21,533 nucleotides of DNA from a virus. Taxonomy: Duplodnaviria > Heunggongvirae > Uroviricota > Caudoviricetes. The notes beneath the pieces were generated by a model. The model made no database searches. It was given only the letters and a program-made list of their open reading frames with translations, and was not told the DNA's origin. Positions 1 to 21,533 of the stretch are shown in pieces (position 1 is the first letter of the stretch; each line of letters opens with the position of its first letter). Location: the IMG/VR virus record IMGVR_UViG_2713897073_000007; one strand, written 5' to 3'. The translations under genes were made by a program, and so were the position numbers.

Positions 1-996
1 TTAACGAACCAGCCAGACCAGCATCAGGATAATCGCGACTAACAGTATCCACAGCGCGGGACGCGTTGCCATATTTTGCAACGTGTCCATCATCGGTGGA
101 AAAGGATTAAGCAGCGGTTGCATAACACGCGGATCAATCCCTTTAACCCGCCGTTGATAAAGCTGATTAAGAATATCCTCGGCCTGGGCAGAAGAAAGCG
201 ATGATTGCGCAGAAAGACCATATTTTTGCTGGATATATGCCGATAACGCCGCCAGTTCACTGGCATCTAAAGGTTGTTTTAGCGTCATCTGTAGTGATTC
301 CAGCGTCGGCGTATTTTGCTGGCTTAGCGTCTGACGCGCCTGTAGCCAGGTCACCAGATGGTTAAACAGTTTCGCTGGAATTAACTCGCCATCTTTCACC
401 CCGGAAAGTTCCAGCATCGATTGCCAGATCTGTTTGCTGGGTTCCCCCGTTGCCGCCGCAAGTTTGGTCACCAGCTGTTTTAGCGCATTGTGCTCCGCCG
501 GTAATAAAGGACGGTCGGTCGCCTCGCGCTGCTGTGGTTGCGGAATAACCATCTTCCCTTCCTGCAACAGGGTGAGAATGGTTTTTAATTGCTCCGGTGA
601 GAGCTGATTCAGCGGCGTCTGACCAAAGTTATGACGGATATAATCCGTGACCGCCTGACGATTATTCCCCAGACGTAAATACTCCCCTAATTGCGCTAAA
701 AGCTGGCGGGCAGAATGGCTTTTTTGCGCGGCCAGCAGACGTTGCGCCAGATTATGCTCAGCGGCAGGGAAGTGACGCGAAAGCAGCGGTGAATCTCCCG
801 ACAGACCAATATCGTGCCTGATACCCGCCCACAGTTCTGCTCTTTGCTGTTGCGTCAGTGAGGTCACTTTCGTCATTAAGCTTTCCAGCGAAGTACGTTG
901 CTGACTGGATAAAGGCTGATTGCCCGTGCCAGACGGCAGATTATCTCCCTGACCTGGTGGTTGCCCAGGAGGAGGGCCGGAAATAGGTTGTATCAT
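1..996 (-). CDS. flk: Flk-like tail-anchored inner-membrane protein (flagellar biosynthesis regulator Flk family); probable host core gene flanking the island
   Basis: 331-aa ORF with Pro/Gln-rich N-terminus (MIQPISGPPPGQPPGQ...) and a single hydrophobic helix at the extreme C-terminus (ALWILLVAIILMLVWLV); size and topology match Flk. Identification is from memory of the family, not a search. Confidence 0.45.
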   Translation of the reverse strand: MIQPISGPPPGQPPGQGDNLPSGTGNQPLSSQQRTSLESLMTKVTSLTQQQRAELWAGIRHDIGLSGDSPLLSRHFPAAEHNLAQRLLAAQKSHSARQLLAQLGEYLRLGNNRQAVTDYIRHNFGQTPLNQLSPEQLKTILTLLQEGKMVIPQPQQREATDRPLLPAEHNALKQLVTKLAAATGEPSKQIWQSMLELSGVKDGELIPAKLFNHLVTWLQARQTLSQQNTPTLESLQMTLKQPLDASELAALSAYIQQKYGLSAQSSLSSAQAEDILNQLYQRRVKGIDPRVMQPLLNPFPPMMDTLQNMATRPALWILLVAIILMLVWLVR

Positions 997-1199
997 TACG
1001 TATCCTTATACCTGAAATCTTCGCAAGTATGCCTGGCCGCGAGATTATGGCACACTTGTCCGGTTAACTCTCGTCTCATACAGGTAACACAAACGTGAAA
1101 ATCCTTGTTGATGAAAAAGATGTTGATTTAACTTTTTGATATAAAAGGATTTGTATCGGCGCATGTCCACGCAGTGACCACATTTTCGAGTTATAGATA

Positions 1200-1231
1200 A
1201 CACAAAGCCCGTTTTCACGGGCTTTGTGTTA
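1200..1231. terminator. Perfect 13-bp inverted repeat hairpin (AACACAAAGCCCG - 6 nt loop - CGGGCTTTGTGTT) just downstream of the minus-strand accessory operon and upstream of flk
   Basis: Read directly from sequence; GC-rich centre with U-rich stem ends; lies 15 nt after the stop at 1246. No clean T-run follows, so terminator function is inferred. Confidence 0.35.
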
Positions 1232-1245
1232 TCTGTGATTGTGGC

Positions 1246-2156
1246 TTAGCCGCATGATTTATACTGTTTCCAGTTACAGGCTTCTTGAAGCGGTTTTAGC
1301 GTGGTTGACAGGCCGTTTAAATTGAAAGTTGCACTTACAGGGCTTTCATTATAAGGGGTTATTTTTGCATACATTTTGTTTGAGTTGGCTAGTTTTCTGA
1401 TGAAGTTAATGTCATTGCCTTTATAAAAAACAGCCTTTGTATCTGTAGATACTAGCCAGTTTCGCTCAACTGCTTTCTGTTTATCAAGGCGATACAGCAT
1501 GCTGGTTTGTTCAAGGCCTAAATATACATCCCAATTAAGAAATACTTCGGTTTTCTTTTCTCGGCAAGCTATAAACAGAGTAGGGGTAACCGCTTCTCCA
1601 AATGGAGTTCTTATATAATCATCACTTTCTAACGATAAAATTACATTTTTCGAATCATCAATTGGCGATGTAGTAATGGATGTGTGCCATTTTCCTGTGT
1701 CTGTGGCTTTCTCTAATTTTGATTTAGATTGCGCAACTTTTTCCTGTGGAAATGGTTTATCGTAGCAGTTTATTCTAGTTTCTTTATCGTTTTCTGCTCG
1801 GCATTTAGATATCTCAGAAAGATTTGGTTGCTGAGCCTCTGTTGTTACTAGCTGTTTCGCTTTAGATTTTGAGCTTACAGGCGGAGTAAATGTTGGAGAA
1901 AAAAACGGTCATAACAAGATAAACGTCTGTCATCATCTTTCTCATCAGGGCATTGATCTCTGCTTTCGAATTTTTCAGCAACTGTCGTTCGAGTCGGTTG
2001 TATTGACTTATCATAACAAGAAAGTCTTTCTTTATTATTTTCTATTGCTCGGCACTGGAGTGATGACTTAAAGTTATTATGCTCAGTTGCTGCGTGAGCA
2101 GGTAGCACACTAATTGATATAAATGATGCACCTATAGAAATAATCATATTTTTCAT
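1246..2156 (-). pseudogene. Secreted Cys-motif repeat protein interrupted by a frameshift at a homopolymer (ORF 1875..2156 carries the signal peptide and two C-x8-9-RLxCYD motifs; the frame open from 1908 down to 1246 carries a third motif and about 220 further codons)
   Basis: N-terminal signal peptide MKNMIISIGASFISISVLPAHA-A. Motifs CRAIENNKERLSCYD, CPDEKDDDRRLSCYD in frame A and CRAENDKETRINCYD in frame B. Frame B has no ATG start of its own before 1500 and opens immediately after a stop at 1909-1911. The A7 run at 1899-1905 (T7 on the coding strand) sits exactly where the frames switch; one extra base would fuse them into an ORF of about 300 aa. Confidence 0.55.
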
Positions 2157-2160
2157 TTTG

Positions 2161-2493
2161 TTATCCCTTTGGTTTAGTAAGAAATACTAAATTTCCGATA
2201 ATGATATTGCAAATAACCCATAAGCCTCCAATAGCAATTAAACCTAAGCCCGTACCAATAACTGTACCGGCTTTTTCGGCATCGGATGTGGCGTTGTTTA
2301 TTATTTCACCCACCTCTCTTAGCCCAACACAAATCGTGTAGATTATAAAAATATTAAATAATATGAAAAAATACTTAATGAGTTCTCCAAAAAATGAACG
2401 TTTAAGTTTTTTCAGTTGTTTGCCACAAGCAGGGCAAGACAATACTGAATCGATCACCTCTTTCTGGCATTCAGGACATTTGATTAATGCCAT
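2161..2493 (-). CDS. Zinc-ribbon membrane protein (N-terminal CPxC...CPxC ribbon followed by two predicted transmembrane helices), AT-rich accessory gene
   Basis: ORF-track ORF 2161..2538; preferred start at the internal Met of MALIKCPECQKE..., which is preceded by AGGAGG at 8-nt spacing. Motifs CPECQ and CPACGK; hydrophobic stretches FFILFNIFIIYTICVGL and LGLIAIGGLWVICNIIIGNLVFL. Ends 4 nt before the downstream gene start at 2156 (operon). Confidence 0.6.
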   Translation of the reverse strand: MALIKCPECQKEVIDSVLSCPACGKQLKKLKRSFFGELIKYFFILFNIFIIYTICVGLREVGEIINNATSDAEKAGTVIGTGLGLIAIGGLWVICNIIIGNLVFLTKPKG

Positions 2494-2640
2494 ATAATCT
2501 GCCTCCTTTGGCTCTCTACTAGCTGACGTTTGTAACAAAACATTTTGATTTTATCAGACTTTTTATTGATATGTGTCAATTGATTAGCTGGTATAGAGTG
2601 AGACAGGATGCCTTATCGACCTTACTCTGGCAACTGATTG

Positions 2641-2660
2641 ACGGGGGATTGCTCCCCCGT
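2641..2660 (-). terminator. Stem-loop ACGGGGGA-TTGC-TCCCCCGT located 10 nt 3' of the hok-like stop; probable 3' structural element or terminator of the hok-like mRNA
   Basis: 8-bp perfect inverted repeat read from sequence; position relative to the toxin ORF matches the structured 3' end known for hok mRNAs. Confidence 0.4.
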
Positions 2661-2670
2661 CGCGGTTTCC

Positions 2671-2811
2671 TTACTGCTTACACTGTAAGAACGCCGCAAA
2701 CTCCGCTCCCCAGAAACTCATCCGTATTTCACACAGCGAACCGTGCAGCATCCAGATGATGAGGATTGCCGTCACGCAGAACGTGATGGCCGTAAGCGAT
2801 TTTTGCGACAT
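2671..2811 (-). CDS. hok: Hok/Gef-family type I toxin, 46 aa (MSQKSLTAITFCVTAILIIWMLHGSLCEIRMSFWGAEFAAFLQCKQ); below the ORF-track length cutoff
   Basis: Hand translation from ATG at 2811-2809 to TAA at 2673-2671, anchored on the ORF-track frames 2729..2941 and 2571..2759. Strong SD AAGGAG 8 nt upstream. N-terminal transmembrane helix followed by the family signature SLCEIR and a C-terminal E-x-AAF-L-x-C motif, as in Hok, Gef and HokA. Confidence 0.7.
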   Translation of the reverse strand: MSQKSLTAITFCVTAILIIWMLHGSLCEIRMSFWGAEFAAFLQCKQ

Positions 2812-2941
2812 AGCACTTGCTCCTTTTCCGGAGAGGCGCTAACCTTTCACTTGTCAAGGTAATGCGGTTAGGGCCTCGGTTAAACAGATATGTTTTCCGG
2901 GGCCTTTCCACATCCGGCCTTCGGGTATTCCCTCCGACCAT
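2729..2941 (-). CDS. mok: mok-like overlapping reading frame (70 aa) that starts upstream of and overlaps the hok-like ORF in another frame
   Basis: ORF-track ORF 2729..2941. The architecture (a roughly 70-codon frame overlapping most of hok, start about 130 nt upstream of the hok ATG) matches hok/mok/sok loci. The sequence itself is low-complexity, so the call rests on architecture. Confidence 0.45.
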   Translation of the reverse strand: MVGGNTRRPDVERPRKTYLFNRGPNRITLTSERLAPLRKRSKCYVAKIAYGHHVLRDGNPHHLDAARFAV

Positions 2942-3001
2942 CAGCCGAAAGGCACCCGCACGTAATCTATCGCTTTTTTGTTACTCCGGCAATTCTGCCT
3001 G

Positions 3002-3262
3002 TTAATCCTGAGGTAAAGGCAAACTCATCTGATTGTTTCCCCTGTGTGAAGCTGGCAGCTCATGCCACGGGATACCTTCTGATGAGTGAACGCCGGAGGC
3101 GTGTTTCGATGTGAATTTATGGAAAGCTTCCAGTGTTGAGAAGCATACGCCGCATTCCAGATTGTTACACTGGTAATACTTTTGCCGCACGGTGTTTGAA
3201 TCATTTTCCGGACGACTGGTGCGGATACGGGCAGATGCGCCACAAAGCGGACAACGGAACAT
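3002..3262 (-). CDS. ogr: Ogr/Delta-family zinc-finger late-gene transcription activator
   Basis: MFRCPLCGASARIRTSR...YYQCNNLECGVCF matches the P2 Ogr pattern MFHCPLC...RTSR...HQCQNVNC as recalled; Cys4 zinc finger; sits directly downstream of gene D as in P2. At 86 aa it is longer than P2 Ogr (72 aa). Confidence 0.85.
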   Translation of the reverse strand: MFRCPLCGASARIRTSRPENDSNTVRQKYYQCNNLECGVCFSTLEAFHKFTSKHASGVHSSEGIPWHELPASHRGNNQMSLPLPQD

Positions 3263-3304: not shown

Positions 3305-4414
3305 TCACTCTGTTTCCGCTATCCATTCCGGGATTTTTGCCTCAAGCTCAAGCTGCGTGGTAAAGCCGCTGTTATCAATGGTGTGCCCGGCTTTTGCAAT
3401 AATCCAGTCCTGATTATCAATCTCGCTTTTAAATCCTGTTACCGTGCCATGCATTTCGGGGTAGAGCTCTGCACGTCCACGCGCCAGCGTGATGGAGAAT
3501 GATGCGGCTCCGCGTTGTAGTTGCTGCCACTTTGCCGCCGCTGCGCGTCTTGCTGCCTGCTCGTTCTGATAAGTCTTGCGTAACACAAACACATTGCCTT
3601 CCGCGCCTTCCATATAATCACCTTCACGGCTGCTGCTTTTCTCCTTTTTGGGTTTTGGCGGTTTACGGCGTTTCACGCTGACTTTTTTCTTTTTCCCGTA
3701 ATTAAGATCAAGCCAGTAGGCGCGTACCCCCGTATACGCCTCGCGGTCAGCAATGCGGAACTGATGGCGATCGCCGCTGCTGCGTGTAATGGCGAACGAG
3801 GGCAACGGCTGGCCCTGTGCGTTCACGCCACCACCTGGCATGATGAATAACAGATTGCCGCTTTTTACCGTGGTGATTGCACCCAGCATTTCCGCCATGC
3901 GCGTAAGGAAGGACATGTCGCTTTCTTCGGTCTGGTCGGCGTGGTCGATTTCGATATCCATCAGCATTTCGCTGATTTGCGGTTTCAGACCATACCGATG
4001 AGCGATGGCGGATACCACACGCTCAACGGTCACATCATGCCAGGACACCTCACGTTTAACGTTAAATTCATCCCAAAAATCTGCGCTTCTGGCTGAAACA
4101 GTCAGCCTGTCCGGCGGTCCTTCGTGAGCGATTTCATCAACAATGTAAGTGCCTTTTTCTGTCAGCGGTTCTCCCTTCCAGCCAATGAGAACCGTCAGGC
4201 GCGCGCCCCGTGGCGGTAGCTGCAACTGACCATCCGCATCATCCAGCGTGATGGTGAGCTGGTCCGCCTCAAATCCCCGGTTGTCGGTCAGTGACAGGCT
4301 CATCAGGCGCTCTGCCACGCCTGACAGCGTTTTACCCTCCGCGAGAATATCAAAATCCGGCATTTTTACGGGGTCTGTGCCCTGACTGAGCAATTGCATG
4401 GTGGTGTCGGTCAT
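3305..4414 (-). CDS. D: P2 gpD-like tail protein (late control gene D family)
   Basis: ORF-track ORF 3305..4546. Protein has the conserved SLSLTDNRGFEADQL block, a central Lys-rich stretch (KKKKVSVKRRKPPKPKKEK) and C-terminal NSGFTTQLEL typical of gpD. Preferred start is the internal Met of MTDTTMQLLSQ (about 4414), preceded by GGGAGGGAG. Confidence 0.85.
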   Translation of the reverse strand: MTDTTMQLLSQGTDPVKMPDFDILAEGKTLSGVAERLMSLSLTDNRGFEADQLTITLDDADGQLQLPPRGARLTVLIGWKGEPLTEKGTYIVDEIAHEGPPDRLTVSARSADFWDEFNVKREVSWHDVTVERVVSAIAHRYGLKPQISEMLMDIEIDHADQTEESDMSFLTRMAEMLGAITTVKSGNLLFIMPGGGVNAQGQPLPSFAITRSSGDRHQFRIADREAYTGVRAYWLDLNYGKKKKVSVKRRKPPKPKKEKSSSREGDYMEGAEGNVFVLRKTYQNEQAARRAAAAKWQQLQRGAASFSITLARGRAELYPEMHGTVTGFKSEIDNQDWIIAKAGHTIDNSGFTTQLELEAKIPEWIAETE

Positions 4415-10309: not shown

Positions 10310-10795
10310 ATGCTGAATAATAGAGATATGAATATTAATGAACTTAAAGACTGTATTCACTATGAAGTAATCGGTAGCGAGCGTCCTTTCTCCTGGCGAA
10401 AGGCAATTGTTCGCGCAATAAAACATAGAAGACTTCGTTATTTATTTTGGTGGCGCATAGCCAAATACCTTTTTGATAAAGGCGGATACTGCCGGAAGAT
10501 TGCGGGGAAAATAGAACGTTTCATTCTTGATAAATATAATGTAACAGTCCCTTTAACTGTAAATATAGGGAAAGGCTTTGATATTTCTTATCTCAACAGT
10601 GTTGTTATCGGTCACAAAGTAACAATCGGTGAAAATTGTTCAATAAAACCGGGGGTAACTATTGGGCTACGTGGTGATTTTAATGATATGGATATTGTTA
10701 TAGGACATAATGTGACCATTGGTTGTAATGCCACCATTCTTGGTGGCAAAGTGCGTATAGGAAACAATGTCACAATAGGTGCTCATGCATTGGTA
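10310..10795 (+). pseudogene. 3'-truncated hexapeptide-repeat (left-handed beta-helix) acyltransferase, AT-rich cargo gene
   Basis: Tandem hexapeptide repeats VTIGENCSIKPGVTIG / IVIGHNVTIGCNATILGGKVRIGNNVTIGAHALV; the last 23 aa of the ORF (TTTFKNFKESLTITSFFRIVAVK) are the reverse-strand reading of the tail-fibre fragment, so the gene is cut at about 10795. Confidence 0.6.
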
Positions 10796-11290
10796 ACCAC
10801 CACCTTCAAGAACTTCAAGGAGTCCCTGACCATAACTTCCTTCTTCCGGATAGTTGCGGTCAAATGAAGCGATTGAGCCACTACTGTTTCGCCATAAACC
10901 AAGATGCTCTGCGCCTCCGAGCGTGTTCAGGTCAATGGTTGTGCTCAGGGGGCGTGTTGCAGACTGAACCTGACGCCAGTAACTCCACGGACCGTCTGAA
11001 CCATTCCATGTGCCAGAAAGGTTGCGCATATAAACATTGCCTGTTCTGGTGGTGTAACGCTGCATTCCTGCAAAATTACCGCCATTGAATACCTCCAGTA
11101 CACCGACTGCACCGTCTTCAGGGAAATTTTTAGCAGCCGTCGCGTTAGTGGATGTAGCTTTAGACCAGACGCCAAGATAAGCCTTAACGGGACCAAATGT
11201 ATTCAAGTCAGCATCAAGCGGCATTTCGCCATTGTTTTTCATAAACGTCAGGCTGGTAACGCCAACATTGTCCAGAAAAGCGCCCTTATC
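10796..11290 (-). pseudogene. Internal fragment of a phage tail fibre gene (gpH-like), truncated at both ends
   Basis: ORF-track ORF 10667..11242 with its frame open upstream to about 11290. Gly/Asn/Thr/Ser-rich fibre-like sequence (GVLEVFNGGNFAGMQRYTTRTGNVYMRNLSGTWNGSDGPWSYW...GQGLLEVLEGGGY). The final 40 aa are an antisense read of the acyltransferase DNA. Family assignment is by composition and synteny only. Confidence 0.45.
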
Positions 11291-16084: not shown

Positions 16085-16915
16085 TTACTTCACGGGAACG
16101 AACGGAACAGCGGTGTTACTGGTCATGTATTGCGGCAGCGTGCCGTTCCATTTGTTGATTGCTTCCAGCTCCATAACGCCGGGATTCTGGCGCAGAGCTT
16201 CGCCGCGTAAACGAATGGCGTCGGCTTCAGCCTGGGCTTTTGTGCGAATGGCATCGGCCTGTCCGGCAGCTTCTGCGCGCAACATGTTGGCTTCTGCTTC
16301 GCGTTGCTTGACTTCCTGTTCGCGTTGCAGGGTTTTCTGGTTTGCCGTGACTTTGGCGTTAATGCTGTCGATAACGGTTGGCGGATATTCCGGTTTACCG
16401 ACATAAGAGAGGCTCATGACCTGAATACCGATGGGGGTCATCTCTTCCTGAATATCTTTAAGTGCTGAATCCAGCAGTTCAGACTTACCACCGTCGATAA
16501 ACTTATCGGTGGTCATTTTGCTGGCCAGTCGGTTGAGTGCATCGGCGATCTTCTGGCGCAGGTCAGTGTCGGTAATGTCGTCCACGCCTTTGCGGTAGGT
16601 CTGAAACACCGTGGTAACTTTGGATGGATCAACTTTGTAGGCCACGCCGATGTGATAGCCGATGGTTGTGCCGTCACTCATCTGGAAGTTGAACGGCTCA
16701 TCGTAACTCTTCATTTGTTTGAAGGTCGGGAAGATGTAAACCTCTGTATTCCAGCCTGTCCAGTAGCGGCCAACGCCAACCACTTCACCGACGCCTTTGT
16801 CGTCGCCCAGTTTGTTGACTTTGATGCCCACATTACCTGGCTCAACGCGATCGCAACCAACCAGCAGGATGGCGGCAAAAAGCGGGAGAATCTGAAAGAG
16901 TCTGAATTTCTTCAT
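16085..16915 (-). CDS. SPFH/band-7 (stomatin-prohibitin-like) domain lipoprotein
   Basis: 276 aa; signal peptide with lipobox (LLVGC); central band-7-like region; C-terminal Ala/Glu/Gln-rich coiled coil (QREQEVKQREAEANMLRAEAAGQADAIRTKAQAEADAIRLRGEALRQN). Start overlaps the upstream gene stop (ATGA). Confidence 0.75.
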   Translation of the reverse strand: MKKFRLFQILPLFAAILLVGCDRVEPGNVGIKVNKLGDDKGVGEVVGVGRYWTGWNTEVYIFPTFKQMKSYDEPFNFQMSDGTTIGYHIGVAYKVDPSKVTTVFQTYRKGVDDITDTDLRQKIADALNRLASKMTTDKFIDGGKSELLDSALKDIQEEMTPIGIQVMSLSYVGKPEYPPTVIDSINAKVTANQKTLQREQEVKQREAEANMLRAEAAGQADAIRTKAQAEADAIRLRGEALRQNPGVMELEAINKWNGTLPQYMTSNTAVPFVPVK

Positions 16916-17126: not shown

Positions 17127-17426
17127 TTACTGGTTAAGGAAAAAATCGAAAACGTTGTCGATGCGTTGCAGCGGCTCCTGCTGCATTGCTTCCGGCGTTT
17201 CTGATTCACCTGGTGACTCCAGCGTCGCGCAAAAATCCTTGATTTCATGATGGAGCGTCAGACGAATGGCAGGAGCCATGGTTCTGGCGTGCTCCAGCTC
17301 ATCCAGCAGTGCCAGCACGGCAGATGGCGAGAGCATTGCGCGAAACGCCAGTAATTTTTGATGCGTTGCCATTCGTTGCAGGTCAGTCGCCAGTTCGCGT
17401 AATTCCTGGTGGTTGATGGCGCTCAT
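17127..17426 (-). CDS. Hypothetical early-operon protein (99 aa, acidic C-terminus)
   Basis: ORF-track ORF; ATGA overlap with the upstream gene; no recognisable motif. Confidence 0.5.
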   Translation of the reverse strand: MSAINHQELRELATDLQRMATHQKLLAFRAMLSPSAVLALLDELEHARTMAPAIRLTLHHEIKDFCATLESPGESETPEAMQQEPLQRIDNVFDFFLNQ

Positions 17427-17689
17427 GCTCTGGCTTCCTTCAGTAGCAGGTTAAACATGTGAGTAAGTGGATTGCTACACCCGAACGGCATCGGGTTTAC
17501 GTGGTAAGAAGCCTGGCCTCCTGCTTTGCGAGCGCGACCACCTGTGCTGCGGTTTGTTCTGATGACTAAGCCGCCGCGCCAGAGTCGGCGTAACTCAGCA
17601 TTGATGGCTGTGGTTGGGGTATTCAGTGCTGCGGCGATTTCTCCGCCGCTACAACCCGGATGGGTAGCGATGTAGTCCAGAATGGTCAT
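17423..17689 (-). CDS. Small winged-helix-like DNA-binding protein (88 aa)
   Basis: MTILDYIATHPGCSGGEIAAALNTPTTAINAELRRLWRGGLVIR resembles a helix-turn-helix/wing pattern; coupled overlaps on both sides. Confidence 0.5.
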   Translation of the reverse strand: MTILDYIATHPGCSGGEIAAALNTPTTAINAELRRLWRGGLVIRTNRSTGGRARKAGGQASYHVNPMPFGCSNPLTHMFNLLLKEARA

Positions 17690-19497: not shown

Positions 19498-19704
19498 TCA
19501 CCCGATAAACCAGATAACAAACGCTATAAACATCGCCCCAATAGCTGCCGGGAAAAGTCCTTTGGTATAAGCGGCGATATATTCAATGCTGAGTTCAATA
19601 AAGCGTTCTTCATGTCCCGTTAACTTGCGAAACAAATAGATCTCTATTACGCCTATCTCAATAAAAACAAGGGTCAGAATGGCGCTGATGATATGGCTGG
19701 TCAT
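19498..19704 (-). CDS. Small membrane protein (68 aa, two predicted transmembrane helices), second gene of the early operon
   Basis: Hydrophobic segments IISAILTLVFIEIGVIEIYLF and FPAAIGAMFIAFVIWFIG; starts 6 nt after the cox stop. Confidence 0.55.
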   Translation of the reverse strand: MTSHIISAILTLVFIEIGVIEIYLFRKLTGHEERFIELSIEYIAAYTKGLFPAAIGAMFIAFVIWFIG

Positions 19705-19710
19705 TTATGA

Positions 19711-19998
19711 CTAAAGTCCCAGCCACAACAACCATGCGTCGCGGCGTTCTTTCGGTTGCTCAAAAAACGCTTTGCGCATGCCTTCGTTAAATGCTGGCAG
19801 ATATACCCAGTTTTCTGATGCACGCGTCTTCACTGAACCTGGTTTCACAAAGTCAATCGTTGGTAACTTTGCAGCGTCAATCATGGTTCTGACGGTTGAT
19901 TCTTTGCGACCAATCATCTTGGCAAATAGTTGATATGGCACCGCTTCAAGTGGATATGGTGCTACCTGAATGAACCCCTCAAGCTCTGATTCGCTCAT
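19711..19998 (-). CDS. cox: Cox-family excisionase / early-promoter repressor
   Basis: ...WVYLPAFNEGMRKAFFEQPKERRDAWLLWLGL matches recalled P2 Cox (...YWVYLPAWNNGLKLAYESRPKEIRDGWLMWLGL); divergent from the C repressor gene; SD GGGAGA 8 nt upstream. Confidence 0.85.
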   Translation of the reverse strand: MSESELEGFIQVAPYPLEAVPYQLFAKMIGRKESTVRTMIDAAKLPTIDFVKPGSVKTRASENWVYLPAFNEGMRKAFFEQPKERRDAWLLWLGL

Positions 19999-20111
19999 TG
20001 TGGTAATCTCCCTAATTCGTTCGAATGGCTCAAAATGGCTTATATCGGCTTATTTGAGTGTTTTTATGTTTGTGCCCGATGTGGCATGTTGCGATGGAGG
20101 ATATGCCCGAT
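19999..20111. promoter_or_regulatory. C/cox divergent switch region (expected Pe and Pc promoters with operators); contains short direct repeats and two copies of a 15-16 bp near-palindromic element
   Basis: Position between divergent cox and C starts. Direct repeats AATGGCT (x2) and GGCTTAT (x2) at 20024-20053; elements TGCCCGATGTGGCAT (about 20073-20087) and TGCCCGATATGGCAT (about 20104-20118), the second overlapping the C start codon region. No promoter hexamers could be assigned with confidence. Confidence 0.45.
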
Positions 20112-20432
20112 ATGGCATCTTTGTCAAGCATGGGTGAAAAATTTCGCCTGATTCGTGAAGCAGAAGGTATGACCCGCCAGGAGTTTGCGGATTGTGTTGG
20201 GCTGCCTTATGGGACGGTAACTAACTATGAGGTGAGGGGGAAGCAAGTAACAGAGGGTGCCTTACTTAAGGTTACGAAACACCCTAAATTTAAGAAGTAT
20301 GCTTATTGGTTATTAACAGATGAAACGATGCCGGAGGTCGGGCAAATTTCTCCGGCTCTCTCTCTTGATGGTTCCTGCAATTCGGAGGGAGATCGCGTTT
20401 CAACCGAAACAATCCAAAAATTATCCCGCTGA
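20112..20432 (+). CDS. C: Immunity repressor C (P2 C family, helix-turn-helix)
   Basis: ORF-track ORF 20058..20432; ...GLPYGTVTNYEVRGK...KYAYWLLTDETMPEVGQISPALS matches recalled P2 C (...GVPYGTLSYYESGR...KYTLWFMTNQIAPESGQIAPALA). Preferred start MASLSS at about 20112, with GGAGG 11 nt upstream; alternative starts at 20094 and 20103. Confidence 0.8.
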   Translation: MASLSSMGEKFRLIREAEGMTRQEFADCVGLPYGTVTNYEVRGKQVTEGALLKVTKHPKFKKYAYWLLTDETMPEVGQISPALSLDGSCNSEGDRVSTETIQKLSR

Positions 20433-20528: not shown

Positions 20529-21533
20529 ATGTCGATTAAGAAGCTCGAAGATGGTCGTTATTTGCTGGACATCAGGCCGAACGGACGCAAGGGAAAGCGC
20601 GTGCGTAAGGTATTTGACAAAAAATCGGTAGCGGTGGCCACTGAACGCTACATCATGGCGAACGCTGAAAAGCGGGAATATATACAGGGCTACCGTGATC
20701 GTCGAACGCTAAATGATTTGCTTGAGTTGTGGTGGATGTATCACGGCCAGCACAGGCGTAAGGCGGAAGAAGACCGAAAACAACTGCGCAACATAATCAA
20801 TGAGCTTGGCGCTGATATGCAGGCTGTGGATCTTGATAAGCTGAAAATTATCGCGTGGCGTTCTCAAAAGATAGCTGAAGGATTGAAACCGTCATCTGCT
20901 AACAGGTACATGAATCGGTTATCCGGAATGTTTACCGTGCTGAAAAAAATAGGTCTTTGGGATGCAGAACATCCAGTAAGGGGAATTTCTATTCTTTATG
21001 TATCTCCACGAGAAATGGCGTTCCTGTCACAGAAGGAAGTGGCGCTATTGCTCGATACACTGGAGGGCGACTACTGGCGTGTTGCGCTTTTGTGTTTAAG
21101 CACAGGGGCGCGCTGGAGTGAAGCTTGTAAGCTTCGTGGTGAACAGATAGTTCATAACCGTGTAACGTTTCTTGAAACCAAAAATGGCCGGAAGAGAACA
21201 GTGCCAATTTCGCAGGCAGTTTGTGAGGCGATCAAAACCAGAGAAACAGGCGGCTTGTTTGAGGTGAAGTACCGGGAATTCTGCCTGGCGCTGAAAAGAG
21301 TTAAGCCCGATTTACCAAAAGGCCAGGCTGCACATGTGCTGCGGCATACGTTCGCCAGCCATTTTGTGATGAACGGAGGAAACATTATTGCGCTTCAGAA
21401 GATTCTTGGTCACGCAACCATTCAGCAAACAATGGCATATGCGCATTTTGCACCGGATTACCTGCAGGATGCGGTGGCCCTTAATCCGCTGAAAGGTGGC
21501 GTAAGTGTCCACGCAGTGTCCACGGGGGATTAA
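20529..21533 (+). CDS. int: Tyrosine recombinase, P2-type integrase
   Basis: ORF-track ORF 20514..21533; MSIKKLEDGRYLLDIRPNGRKGKRVRK N-terminus, LSTGARWSEA, HVLRHTFASHF...GGNIIALQKILGH...MAYAHFAPDYLQDAVALNPL catalytic-domain motifs match recalled P2 Int. Preferred start at 20529 (GGAGGG 7 nt upstream). The stop coincides with the window end, so the att site lies outside the window. Confidence 0.9.
   Translation: MSIKKLEDGRYLLDIRPNGRKGKRVRKVFDKKSVAVATERYIMANAEKREYIQGYRDRRTLNDLLELWWMYHGQHRRKAEEDRKQLRNIINELGADMQAVDLDKLKIIAWRSQKIAEGLKPSSANRYMNRLSGMFTVLKKIGLWDAEHPVRGISILYVSPREMAFLSQKEVALLLDTLEGDYWRVALLCLSTGARWSEACKLRGEQIVHNRVTFLETKNGRKRTVPISQAVCEAIKTRETGGLFEVKYREFCLALKRVKPDLPKGQAAHVLRHTFASHFVMNGGNIIALQKILGHATIQQTMAYAHFAPDYLQDAVALNPLKGGVSVHAVSTGD

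Follow-up and report, generated by a model that had tools for sequence, protein, structure and literature searches.

Which of the repeats between the divergent regulatory genes of a phage serve its repressor, and which serve the antagonist of that repressor? This question is raised by a 21,533-nt stretch of Caudoviricetes DNA (IMG/VR record IMGVR_UViG_2713897073_000007; the whole stretch is called the window hereafter), in which cox, the gene of a predicted excisionase, and C, the gene of an immunity repressor, are separated by a short spacer that holds two different sets of repeats. Our analysis indicates that this spacer is probably the P2-type switch of the phage genus Xuanwuvirus, with two near-palindromic 15-mers as the predicted operators of C and a run of phased GGCT units as the predicted binding boxes of Cox.

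Two sets of repeats in the cox/C spacer

The start codon of cox lies at 19996-19998 on the minus strand and C starts at 20112 on the plus strand, so that the spacer comprises positions 19999-20111 (113 nt); int follows C on the plus strand. A preliminary description of this DNA had placed the spacer in a P2-family prophage, between cox and C genes that diverge, and had reported in it the heptamers AATGGCT and GGCTTAT, each present twice at about 10-bp spacing, together with two near-palindromic elements about 31 bp apart, the second lying over the start of C. Gene order and homologies agree with the first of these statements, and every repeat was found where it had been described.

AATGGCT starts at 20024 and 20034 and GGCTTAT at 20037 and 20047, and the two pairs together make up three in-phase 10-bp units, AATGGCTCAA (20024-33), AATGGCTTAT (20034-43) and ATCGGCTTAT (20044-53). 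The near-palindromes are two 15-mers with the common form TGCCCGATRTGGCAT, which differ at one base and lie 31 bp apart from start to start: TGCCCGATGTGGCAT at 20073-20087 and TGCCCGATATGGCAT at 20104-20118, the latter including the C start codon. Both sets stand above chance. When the spacer was shuffled 2000 times with its dinucleotides preserved, a direct repeat of at least 15 nt with no more than one mismatch arose twice, while the lag-10 self-match of 16/20 was reached by none of 3000 such shuffles, even when the best of lags 9-11 was taken. Within 3 mismatches, the 21.5-kb window held no further copies of the 15-mer beyond chance, and looping via extra operators, as in 186 or lambda, was rejected on this ground. 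From 19990 to 20140 the sequence does not differ from that of P88_4B11, a sequenced phage.

The genes flanking the spacer

Cox (95 aa; 19711-19998, minus strand), the predicted excisionase and repressor of the lysogenic promoter Pc, is encoded by the first gene of the early operon. It matched the Pfam family Phage_Cox (E 1.3e-22) and the P2 Cox structure 4LHF (E 3.4e-26), and in identical genomes the identical gene is annotated as 'Cox family protein'. C (106 aa; 20112-20432, plus strand) retrieved the P2 C structures 2L49/2XCJ in a phmmer search of the PDB (E 1.6e-16, residues 6-88) and gave a weak HTH_3 match under the Pfam cut-off. It is 33-42% identical to the C proteins of P2 and WPhi and differs from that of P88_4B11 by a single residue (L68S). 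The second gene of the lysogenic operon, int (20529-21533, plus strand), encodes a tyrosine integrase with the Pfam domains Int_N and Phage_integrase, 100% identical to Int of P88_4B11.

Judging from these homologies, C is a P2-type repressor, a homologue of P2 C, and Cox is a homologue of P2 Cox; the switch is therefore of the P2 type and not of the 186 type. Size, sequence similarity and control set the CI-type repressor of 186 apart from P2-type C (PMC1904268), and 186-type switch regions carry an additional cII gene (PMC3448106). For the window, a 186-type repressor was ruled out by the length of C (106 aa) and by its homology to the P2 protein.

In an E. coli genome with 100% identity, PGAP places the start of C at 20112. 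All three C classes that we found on this backbone have GGAG 16 nt upstream of this ATG (GGAG-N12-ATG), and one of them, class B, has no second in-frame ATG in C. Because of the GGAG spacing, the single ATG of class B and the choice made by PGAP, 20112 was preferred over 20130.

Natural exchange of C beside a constant Cox

To assign the two sets of repeats, we used 44 IMG/VR loci whose Cox is 95-100% identical, save for locus L050 at 75%. Three C alleles occur on this backbone: that of the window (class A), that of Shae_phiSM (class B) and that of Chuche (class C). While the Cox proteins of Shae_phiSM and Chuche are 98-99% identical to that of the window, the three C alleles are 42-48% identical to one another and differ in helix-3, the recognition helix (YGTVTNYE, QYNLKNYE and LNTIQKYE). 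The cox-proximal ~55 nt, including the phased GGCT units, are kept in all three groups, and each C allele comes with its own pair of repeats at two positions, which we call O2 (distal) and O1 (proximal to C). In class A the pair consists of TGCCCGATGTGGCAT and TGCCCGATATGGCAT, at a spacing of 31 bp; in class B of ATYACATGTAAC at O2 and ATCACATATGATC at O1, also 31 bp apart; and in class C of TTTCT-N6-AGAAA at both positions, 24 bp apart. Identity of the window to Shae_phiSM and Chuche is 90-100% outside ~20057-20340 and ~45-60% inside, and this sliding identity outlines a putative exchangeable immunity cassette made up of O2, the predicted early promoter Pe, O1 and C codons 1-76.

Because the repeat pairs change with C and the GGCT units stay with Cox, C was taken as the likely partner of the 15-mers and Cox as that of the tandem units. 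The preliminary description had taken the tandem repeats and the near-palindromes as alternative sites for the repressor, a view that is not supported by these phages with nearly the same Cox and different C proteins, in which the two sets go with two different proteins.

Variation within classes was also informative. Class A was sampled with 22 sequences, 11 of them distinct, and both 15-mers are invariant in the 10 close distinct ones, while the bases between them (GTTGCGATGG) vary and include a 1-nt indel; the immediate flanks vary too. In L050, where the recognition helix of C is identical to that of the window, the sites are TGCC-ACATAT-GGCA and TGCC-CGATAT-GACA, 31 bp apart, with the arms kept and the centre changed. 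Among class-C variants, the differences are confined to the central bases of O1. A scan of contigs with Cox yielded a single match, one distant locus.

The candidate operators flank a predicted early promoter

A promoter scan of the spacer gave a single hit, on the minus strand, with TTGACA (20127-20122), an 18-nt spacer and TATCCT (20103-20098) as the predicted −35 and −10 boxes of Pe, the former lying within codons 4-6 of C. The proximal candidate operator O1, ATGCCCGATATGGCAT (20103-20118), fills the spacer of this promoter exactly, includes the C start codon and matches the annotated O1 of P2 in position. The distal candidate O2, GTGCCCGATGTGGCAT (20072-20087), is a direct repeat of O1 and would lie between about +4 and +19 of the transcript predicted for Pe, so the two flank the −10 box. 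The GenBank record of P2 is annotated in the same order: O2, Pe −10, O1, and a Pe −35 box that overlaps the first C codons.

The hexamers equivalent to the −10 box are TAAACT in class B and TATACT in class C. For a broader comparison we collected 80 IMG/VR loci with C relatives, which fell into 23 groups; 22 of these, together with P2 and WPhi, gave 24 classes. A promoter scan of these classes recovered the annotated Pe of P2, and in most of the 24 TTGAC(A/G/T) stands in the same place, followed after 18 nt (or 17 nt) by a −10 hexamer, for which TAnnCT is the commonest form. TTGAC(A/G/T) stands at the −35 place in 18 of the 22 IMG/VR classes as well as in P2 and WPhi, and it is retained at the DNA level despite differing N-terminal peptides of C (MASLSS, MIHKSS, MRNVSI and MSNTIS; loci L066-L145).

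For P2-type C proteins, two repeats 22-34 bp apart that flank the −10 or the −35 box of Pe have been described: half-sites of 8 bp in P2 (22 bp from centre to centre, around the −10 box), of 8 bp in P2 Hy dis (26 bp, around the −35 box) and of 10 bp in WPhi (34 bp, around the −10 box) (PMC1904268). The 15-mers of the window fit this range of distances and this position at Pe.

The Shine-Dalgarno sequence of C, GGAGG (20096-20100, plus strand), overlaps the predicted Pe −10 box of the other strand, the two elements using the same base pairs (20096-20103), and the 11-nt gap between it and the ATG is occupied by O1. On the plus strand, the consensus scan of the spacer gave no promoter hit, and none of the hexamer pairs judged by eye was convincing; Pc was for this reason placed solely by analogy with P2. 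A possible −10 box, assigned with low confidence from its position and its local similarity to the annotated Pc −10 of P2, is TATATC (20041-20046, plus strand): P2 has GTCTTATAATGCC at the place where the window has GGCTTATATCGGC, and the distance to the cox ATG is 38 nt in P2 and 43 nt for TATATC.

Dyad symmetry within the candidate C sites

Both copies of the candidate C site have the form TGCC-N6-GGCA, with arm centres 10-11 bp apart, a distance that we infer to fit one C dimer per site. Six of eight base pairs are symmetric in ATGCCCGATATGGCAT and five of eight in GTGCCCGATGTGGCAT; the dyad is weak in each single site but jointly significant at the register of the repeat (p ~0.013 in the window class). 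The non-palindromic character stressed for the half-sites of P2 C was not found in these sites. The preliminary description had offered direct or inverted repeats as sites of a P2-type or a 186-type repressor, respectively. The 15-mers are at once direct repeats of each other and internally dyad-symmetric; the 186-type repressor had to be abandoned.

To determine how general this symmetry is, we took the best direct-repeat pair of each of the 24 classes and compared the symmetry at the same register in both copies with shuffles. The joint dyad reached p <= 0.02 in 15 of the 24 classes; P2 gave p = 0.015, and the value for WPhi was not significant (p 0.125). At the same position, class C (TTTCTCATATGAGAAA) and locus L136 (GGATTACATGTAATCC) have palindromes that are perfect over 16 bp. 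The repeat finder chose cox-proximal repeats (spacing 20) in loci L076 and L106 and gave no clear pair in L108, L128, L139, L140 and L145, so these seven classes are uninformative and not negative. In P2, the annotated O1 8-mer lies within TTGAGATCTAAA, a 10/12 palindrome, and that of O2 within TCTACATCTAAA, an 8/12 palindrome (locus L006, 679-690 and 657-668).

The operators of P2 C have been described as non-palindromic direct repeats, said to be common to seven classes, while in the crystal structure P2 C forms a symmetric dimer, similar to palindrome binders, whose shape suits two successive major grooves (PMC2995052). How this symmetric dimer reads asymmetric repeats has been called puzzling (PMC4752584). 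The dyad within each repeat appears to be the sole departure of the window from the textbook picture, and it appears to be common in the family and not specific to the window. The chances seem to us evenly balanced that most 'half-sites' of the P2 C family are full dyad operators, each taken by one symmetric dimer, the direct-repeat recognition of P2 being a degenerate special case.

The 15-mers could instead be C operators that are read purely as direct repeats, with one subunit per dimer in specific contact and an incidental symmetry. P2 C has been modelled in this way in the literature (PMC2995052, PMC4752584), and such a reading would account for the non-symmetric centre that O1 and O2 share (CGATGT and CGATAT), for the symmetry of O2 at just five of eight pairs and for the behavior of WPhi. 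It is harder to reconcile with L050, which keeps the arms and changes the centre beside an identical recognition helix, with the class-C variation, which lies solely in the centre, with the joint dyad of 15 of the 24 classes, and with perfect palindromes at the same position in class C and L136. On balance we regard it as unlikely and favor dyad-symmetric sites that are repeated directly.

Phased GGCT units as candidate Cox boxes

The candidate Cox boxes are the three 10-bp phased units AATGGCTCAA, AATGGCTTAT and ATCGGCTTAT (20024-20053, plus strand), with the core (T)GGCT, flanked by weaker in-phase units at 20014-23 and 20054-63. The GGCT core and its phase are also kept in L050. In P2, the protection by Cox over Pc extends for at least 70 nt and involves at least six 9-bp boxes, the starts of which are 10-11 bp apart (PMC3936717). 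In a lag-10 test, the P2 boxes, used as the positive control, gave 20/30 matches at +19 from the cox ATG; the window gave 20/30 matches at +18, and a comparable signal (p <= 0.05) was found in 17 of 22 testable classes.

We then built a weight matrix from the boxes of the switch region and scanned both strands of 29 kb of P88_4B11. The best cluster outside the switch, TATAGCCTGAAACGGCTTAAAGGGCG, lies 6 nt past the int stop codon, in the att arm, with a score of 16.4 as compared with 12.6 for the next best. This arm lies just past the end of the window and is present in E. coli 99-3165. A prophage with a different Cox, PhiECO5 of E. coli UTI89, has phased TTTGTT units in the switch and just after int. 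In its locus (L065), GGTTTGTTTT units in 10-bp phase lie beside the cox-like gene (~1915-1945), and TTTGTT units in 10-bp phase lie after int (~3385-3425). As read from these repeats, PhiECO5 represents a second Cox type with predicted boxes at both places, the switch and the att arm, and it repeats the pattern independently.

The 10-bp tandem repeats could themselves be proposed as the half-sites of C, with the near-palindromes serving something else, given that P2-type repressors have been described as direct-repeat binders (PMC1904268) and that the tandem repeats are statistically real. However, these repeats are unchanged beside C proteins with only 42-48% identity and different recognition helices, they track a Cox that is 98-99% identical, and they lie 45-75 bp from the predicted core of Pe; moreover, known C half-sites are 22-34 bp apart and not 10 bp (PMC1904268). 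This makes such an assignment very improbable, and we retain the tandem units as candidate Cox boxes.

Weighing the assignment

The dyads could also act in RNA, folding the C leader into hairpins that hide the start codon and restrain C translation, since O1 holds the AUG at 20112 and the O1 dyad lies over the start codon in every class on this backbone. We give this very little credence: the leader (20053-20140) folds no better than shuffled sequences (z −0.77; 41 of 200 folded at least as well), the stems are only 4-5 bp long, and O2 has no start codon to mask. Equally hard to credit is that the repeats are duplication leftovers or chance products without function in a dead prophage. The prophage is indeed in decay, its capsid, terminase and replication genes being truncated or missing, but the shuffle tests speak against chance, a sequenced phage genome has exactly the same spacer, neither site varies within the class and the same architecture recurs across the family.

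Several observations weigh against the assignment of the 15-mers to C and of the phased units to Cox. The kept cox-proximal segment could merely mark a site of recombination. O2 has only five symmetric pairs out of eight, the centre CGATRT is common to O1 and O2 while a dyad of arms alone does not require it, and the classes of our survey are partly non-independent. As for the promoters, the lone Pe hit is not significant by itself (0.5 hits are expected in shuffles), Pc was not located by consensus, and the candidate TATATC has no final T of the −10 consensus. On the side of Cox, the window has three to four clear boxes, and up to five phased units, while P2 has six or more. The cluster in the att arm scores far below that of the switch (16.4 vs 37.4), and it is identical in all the relatives compared, so it is not independently conserved.

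A model of the switch

We propose that the 113-nt spacer would work as a transcriptional switch with sites for two mutually antagonistic regulators, C and Cox. O1 and O2 would be the C operators that bracket the −10 box of the leftward Pe. Since O1 fills the Pe spacer and O2 lies at about +4 to +19, C bound to both would exclude RNA polymerase from Pe or trap it there, which would keep cox and the early genes off, maintain the prophage and confer immunity to superinfection. The likeliest stoichiometry would be one symmetric C dimer per site, and the two dimers, three helical turns apart and on the same face of the DNA, could bind cooperatively. Conversely, Cox made from Pe would polymerise on the three to four phased (T)GGCT units, with the weaker units on either side, over the region where the weak rightward Pc of C and int must lie, and would thereby turn C synthesis off. 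Where these boxes recur beside int, in the att arm, Cox may bind them to promote excision.

Comparison with known switches

The Pe/Pc switch of P2 has a homologous C and the same order of elements (cox, Pc region, O2, Pe −10, O1, Pe −35 over the first C codons, int), with two repeats of one sequence flanking the Pe −10 box (PMC1904268). The cox/C spacer has 113 nt here and 114 nt in P2, for which about 110 bp has been reported (PMC3936717). The half-sites of P2 are 8 bp long, non-palindromic and 22 bp apart, whereas the sites of the window are 15-16 bp long, 31 bp apart and each possess a dyad. Because the operator sequences are unrelated, P2 and the window phage should be heteroimmune. The Cox proteins are homologous too, and in both phages short units in 10-bp phase, candidate boxes in the case of the window, stand at the same distance from the cox ATG; a second cluster, here a weaker candidate, lies in the att arm (PMC3936717). 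They differ in that P2 has the motif TTAAA(G/C)NC(A/C) in at least six copies, in 10-11 bp phase, at Pc and attP, while the window candidates have a (T)GGCT core in three to four clear copies, all in one orientation.

In WPhi (immunity class III), the C half-sites likewise flank the Pe −10 box at about three helical turns, 34 bp as compared with 31 bp here (PMC1904268, PMC1904263), but they are 10 bp long (GTCACCAATA) and show no significant joint dyad; its C is 40-42% identical to that of the window. PhiECO5, a 37-kb P2-like prophage tentatively placed in immunity class IX (PMC3448106), has a C that is 42% identical and, on either side of TATCCT, a dyad pair made up of CTTCACC-ATGT-GGTGAAG and, at a distance of 32 bp, a weaker copy. 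It differs in the operator sequence, in its longer Cox (173 aa) and in the integration site (serS-dmsA). Placing the window in class IX was considered and rejected, PhiECO5 being of a different class.

Outside the P2 group, C.Esp1396I is a small helix-turn-helix dimer structurally like P2 C, and it binds directly repeated palindromic sites, one dimer per repeat, as proposed here (PMC2995052). It belongs to an unrelated restriction-modification control system, with sites 15 bp from centre to centre, and is likened to the window by its published description only. The CI/Apl switch of 186 resembles that predicted for the window in its face-to-face lytic and lysogenic promoters, a repressor acting on inverted repeats and the excisionase Apl acting on direct repeats one helical turn apart (PMC7498355, PMC1904268), but the C of the window is of the P2 type, with about 100 aa, and not of the CI type.

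The surrounding prophage

The window starts within the host gene flk (open reading frame 1-996, minus strand; NCBIfam equivalog, E 1e-151), and from ~1098 to its end it matches P88-like phages of the genus Xuanwuvirus (Peduoviridae). The cox-C-int stretch (841 bp) is 98.5% identical to phage P88_4B11 and 97.3% identical to PhiR44_2. DNA matching it was found in 295 of 5426 complete E. coli genomes, and every matching place is chromosomal. In E. coli 99-3165 this stretch is 100% identical, and pdxB comes after int there.

BLAST comparison with P88_4B11 and 99-3165 revealed large deletions in the prophage of the window. The capsid, terminase and baseplate genes and part of the replication gene are truncated or lost, and another 4.2 kb are absent between 11836 and 11863 by comparison with the prophage of 99-3165, which is 100% identical elsewhere; in 99-3165, this piece holds baseplate, tail-completion and lysis genes. 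In view of these deletions the prophage is a remnant, as the preliminary description had stated. Since flk stands at the start of the window and its end falls exactly on the int stop codon, nearly the whole remnant is within it, ~20.4 kb as compared with 37.1 kb for P88_4B11. The further claim of an intact lysogeny module also proved correct, with cox, C and int all complete. Given a spacer that matches P88_4B11 at every position and an intact C with one residue changed, it is plausible that the remnant has retained immunity.

Within the last codons of int, AGTGTCCACG occurs twice, at 21504-21513 and 21515-21524, 11 bp apart. Its reverse complement fits the arm-site consensus of P2-type Int, tgTGGaCa (PMC3448106), and the other att arm of P88_4B11 (locus L001, 10020-10380) contains a similar pair, TGTCCAC and TGACCAC. 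From this resemblance, the AGTGTCCACG pair probably represents arm-type binding sites of Int.

Directly after cox lies an open reading frame (19498-19704, minus strand) for a hydrophobic protein of 68 aa, which had no match in Pfam and whose position is kept in Shae_phiSM, Chuche and P88_4B11. Elsewhere in the early operon there are an SPFH/HflC-like gene (16085-16915, minus strand) and a small gene (17423-17689, minus strand) whose RefSeq annotation in the identical 99-3165 prophage is MarR-family regulator; we know of no P2 counterpart of either. After the tail gene U, the reading frame at 10310-10867 (plus strand) resembles hexapeptide-repeat acetyltransferases, with matches to serine O-acetyltransferase and WcaB-type families below the cut-offs. 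P88_4B11 has a DNA invertase gene and tail-fibre genes at that place, and on this account the reading frame may be a cargo gene.

Significance of the switch

In a literature search we found no description of this specific operator, and nothing relevant on the switch of P88 or Xuanwuvirus or on palindromic C operators. The switch itself is of a known kind, with an ordinary layout apart from the symmetric repressor sites, and not a new kind of system. What the natural chimeras add is that each set of repeats can be assigned to its likely protein by co-variation and not by analogy alone. They also provide a predicted operator for an immunity class that is present in a few percent of complete E. 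coli genomes, where even decayed copies could, on this prediction, still exclude phages of the same class. If the reading of the C sites as dyad operators is true, the exchangeable immunity cassette would be defined as consisting of the two operators and the N-terminal domain of C, and the puzzle of a symmetric C dimer on an asymmetric site would largely dissolve. Repeated dyad operators in many C-type switches would then give a simple and testable answer to the open structural question of P2, how a symmetric dimer recognizes repeats that seem asymmetric.

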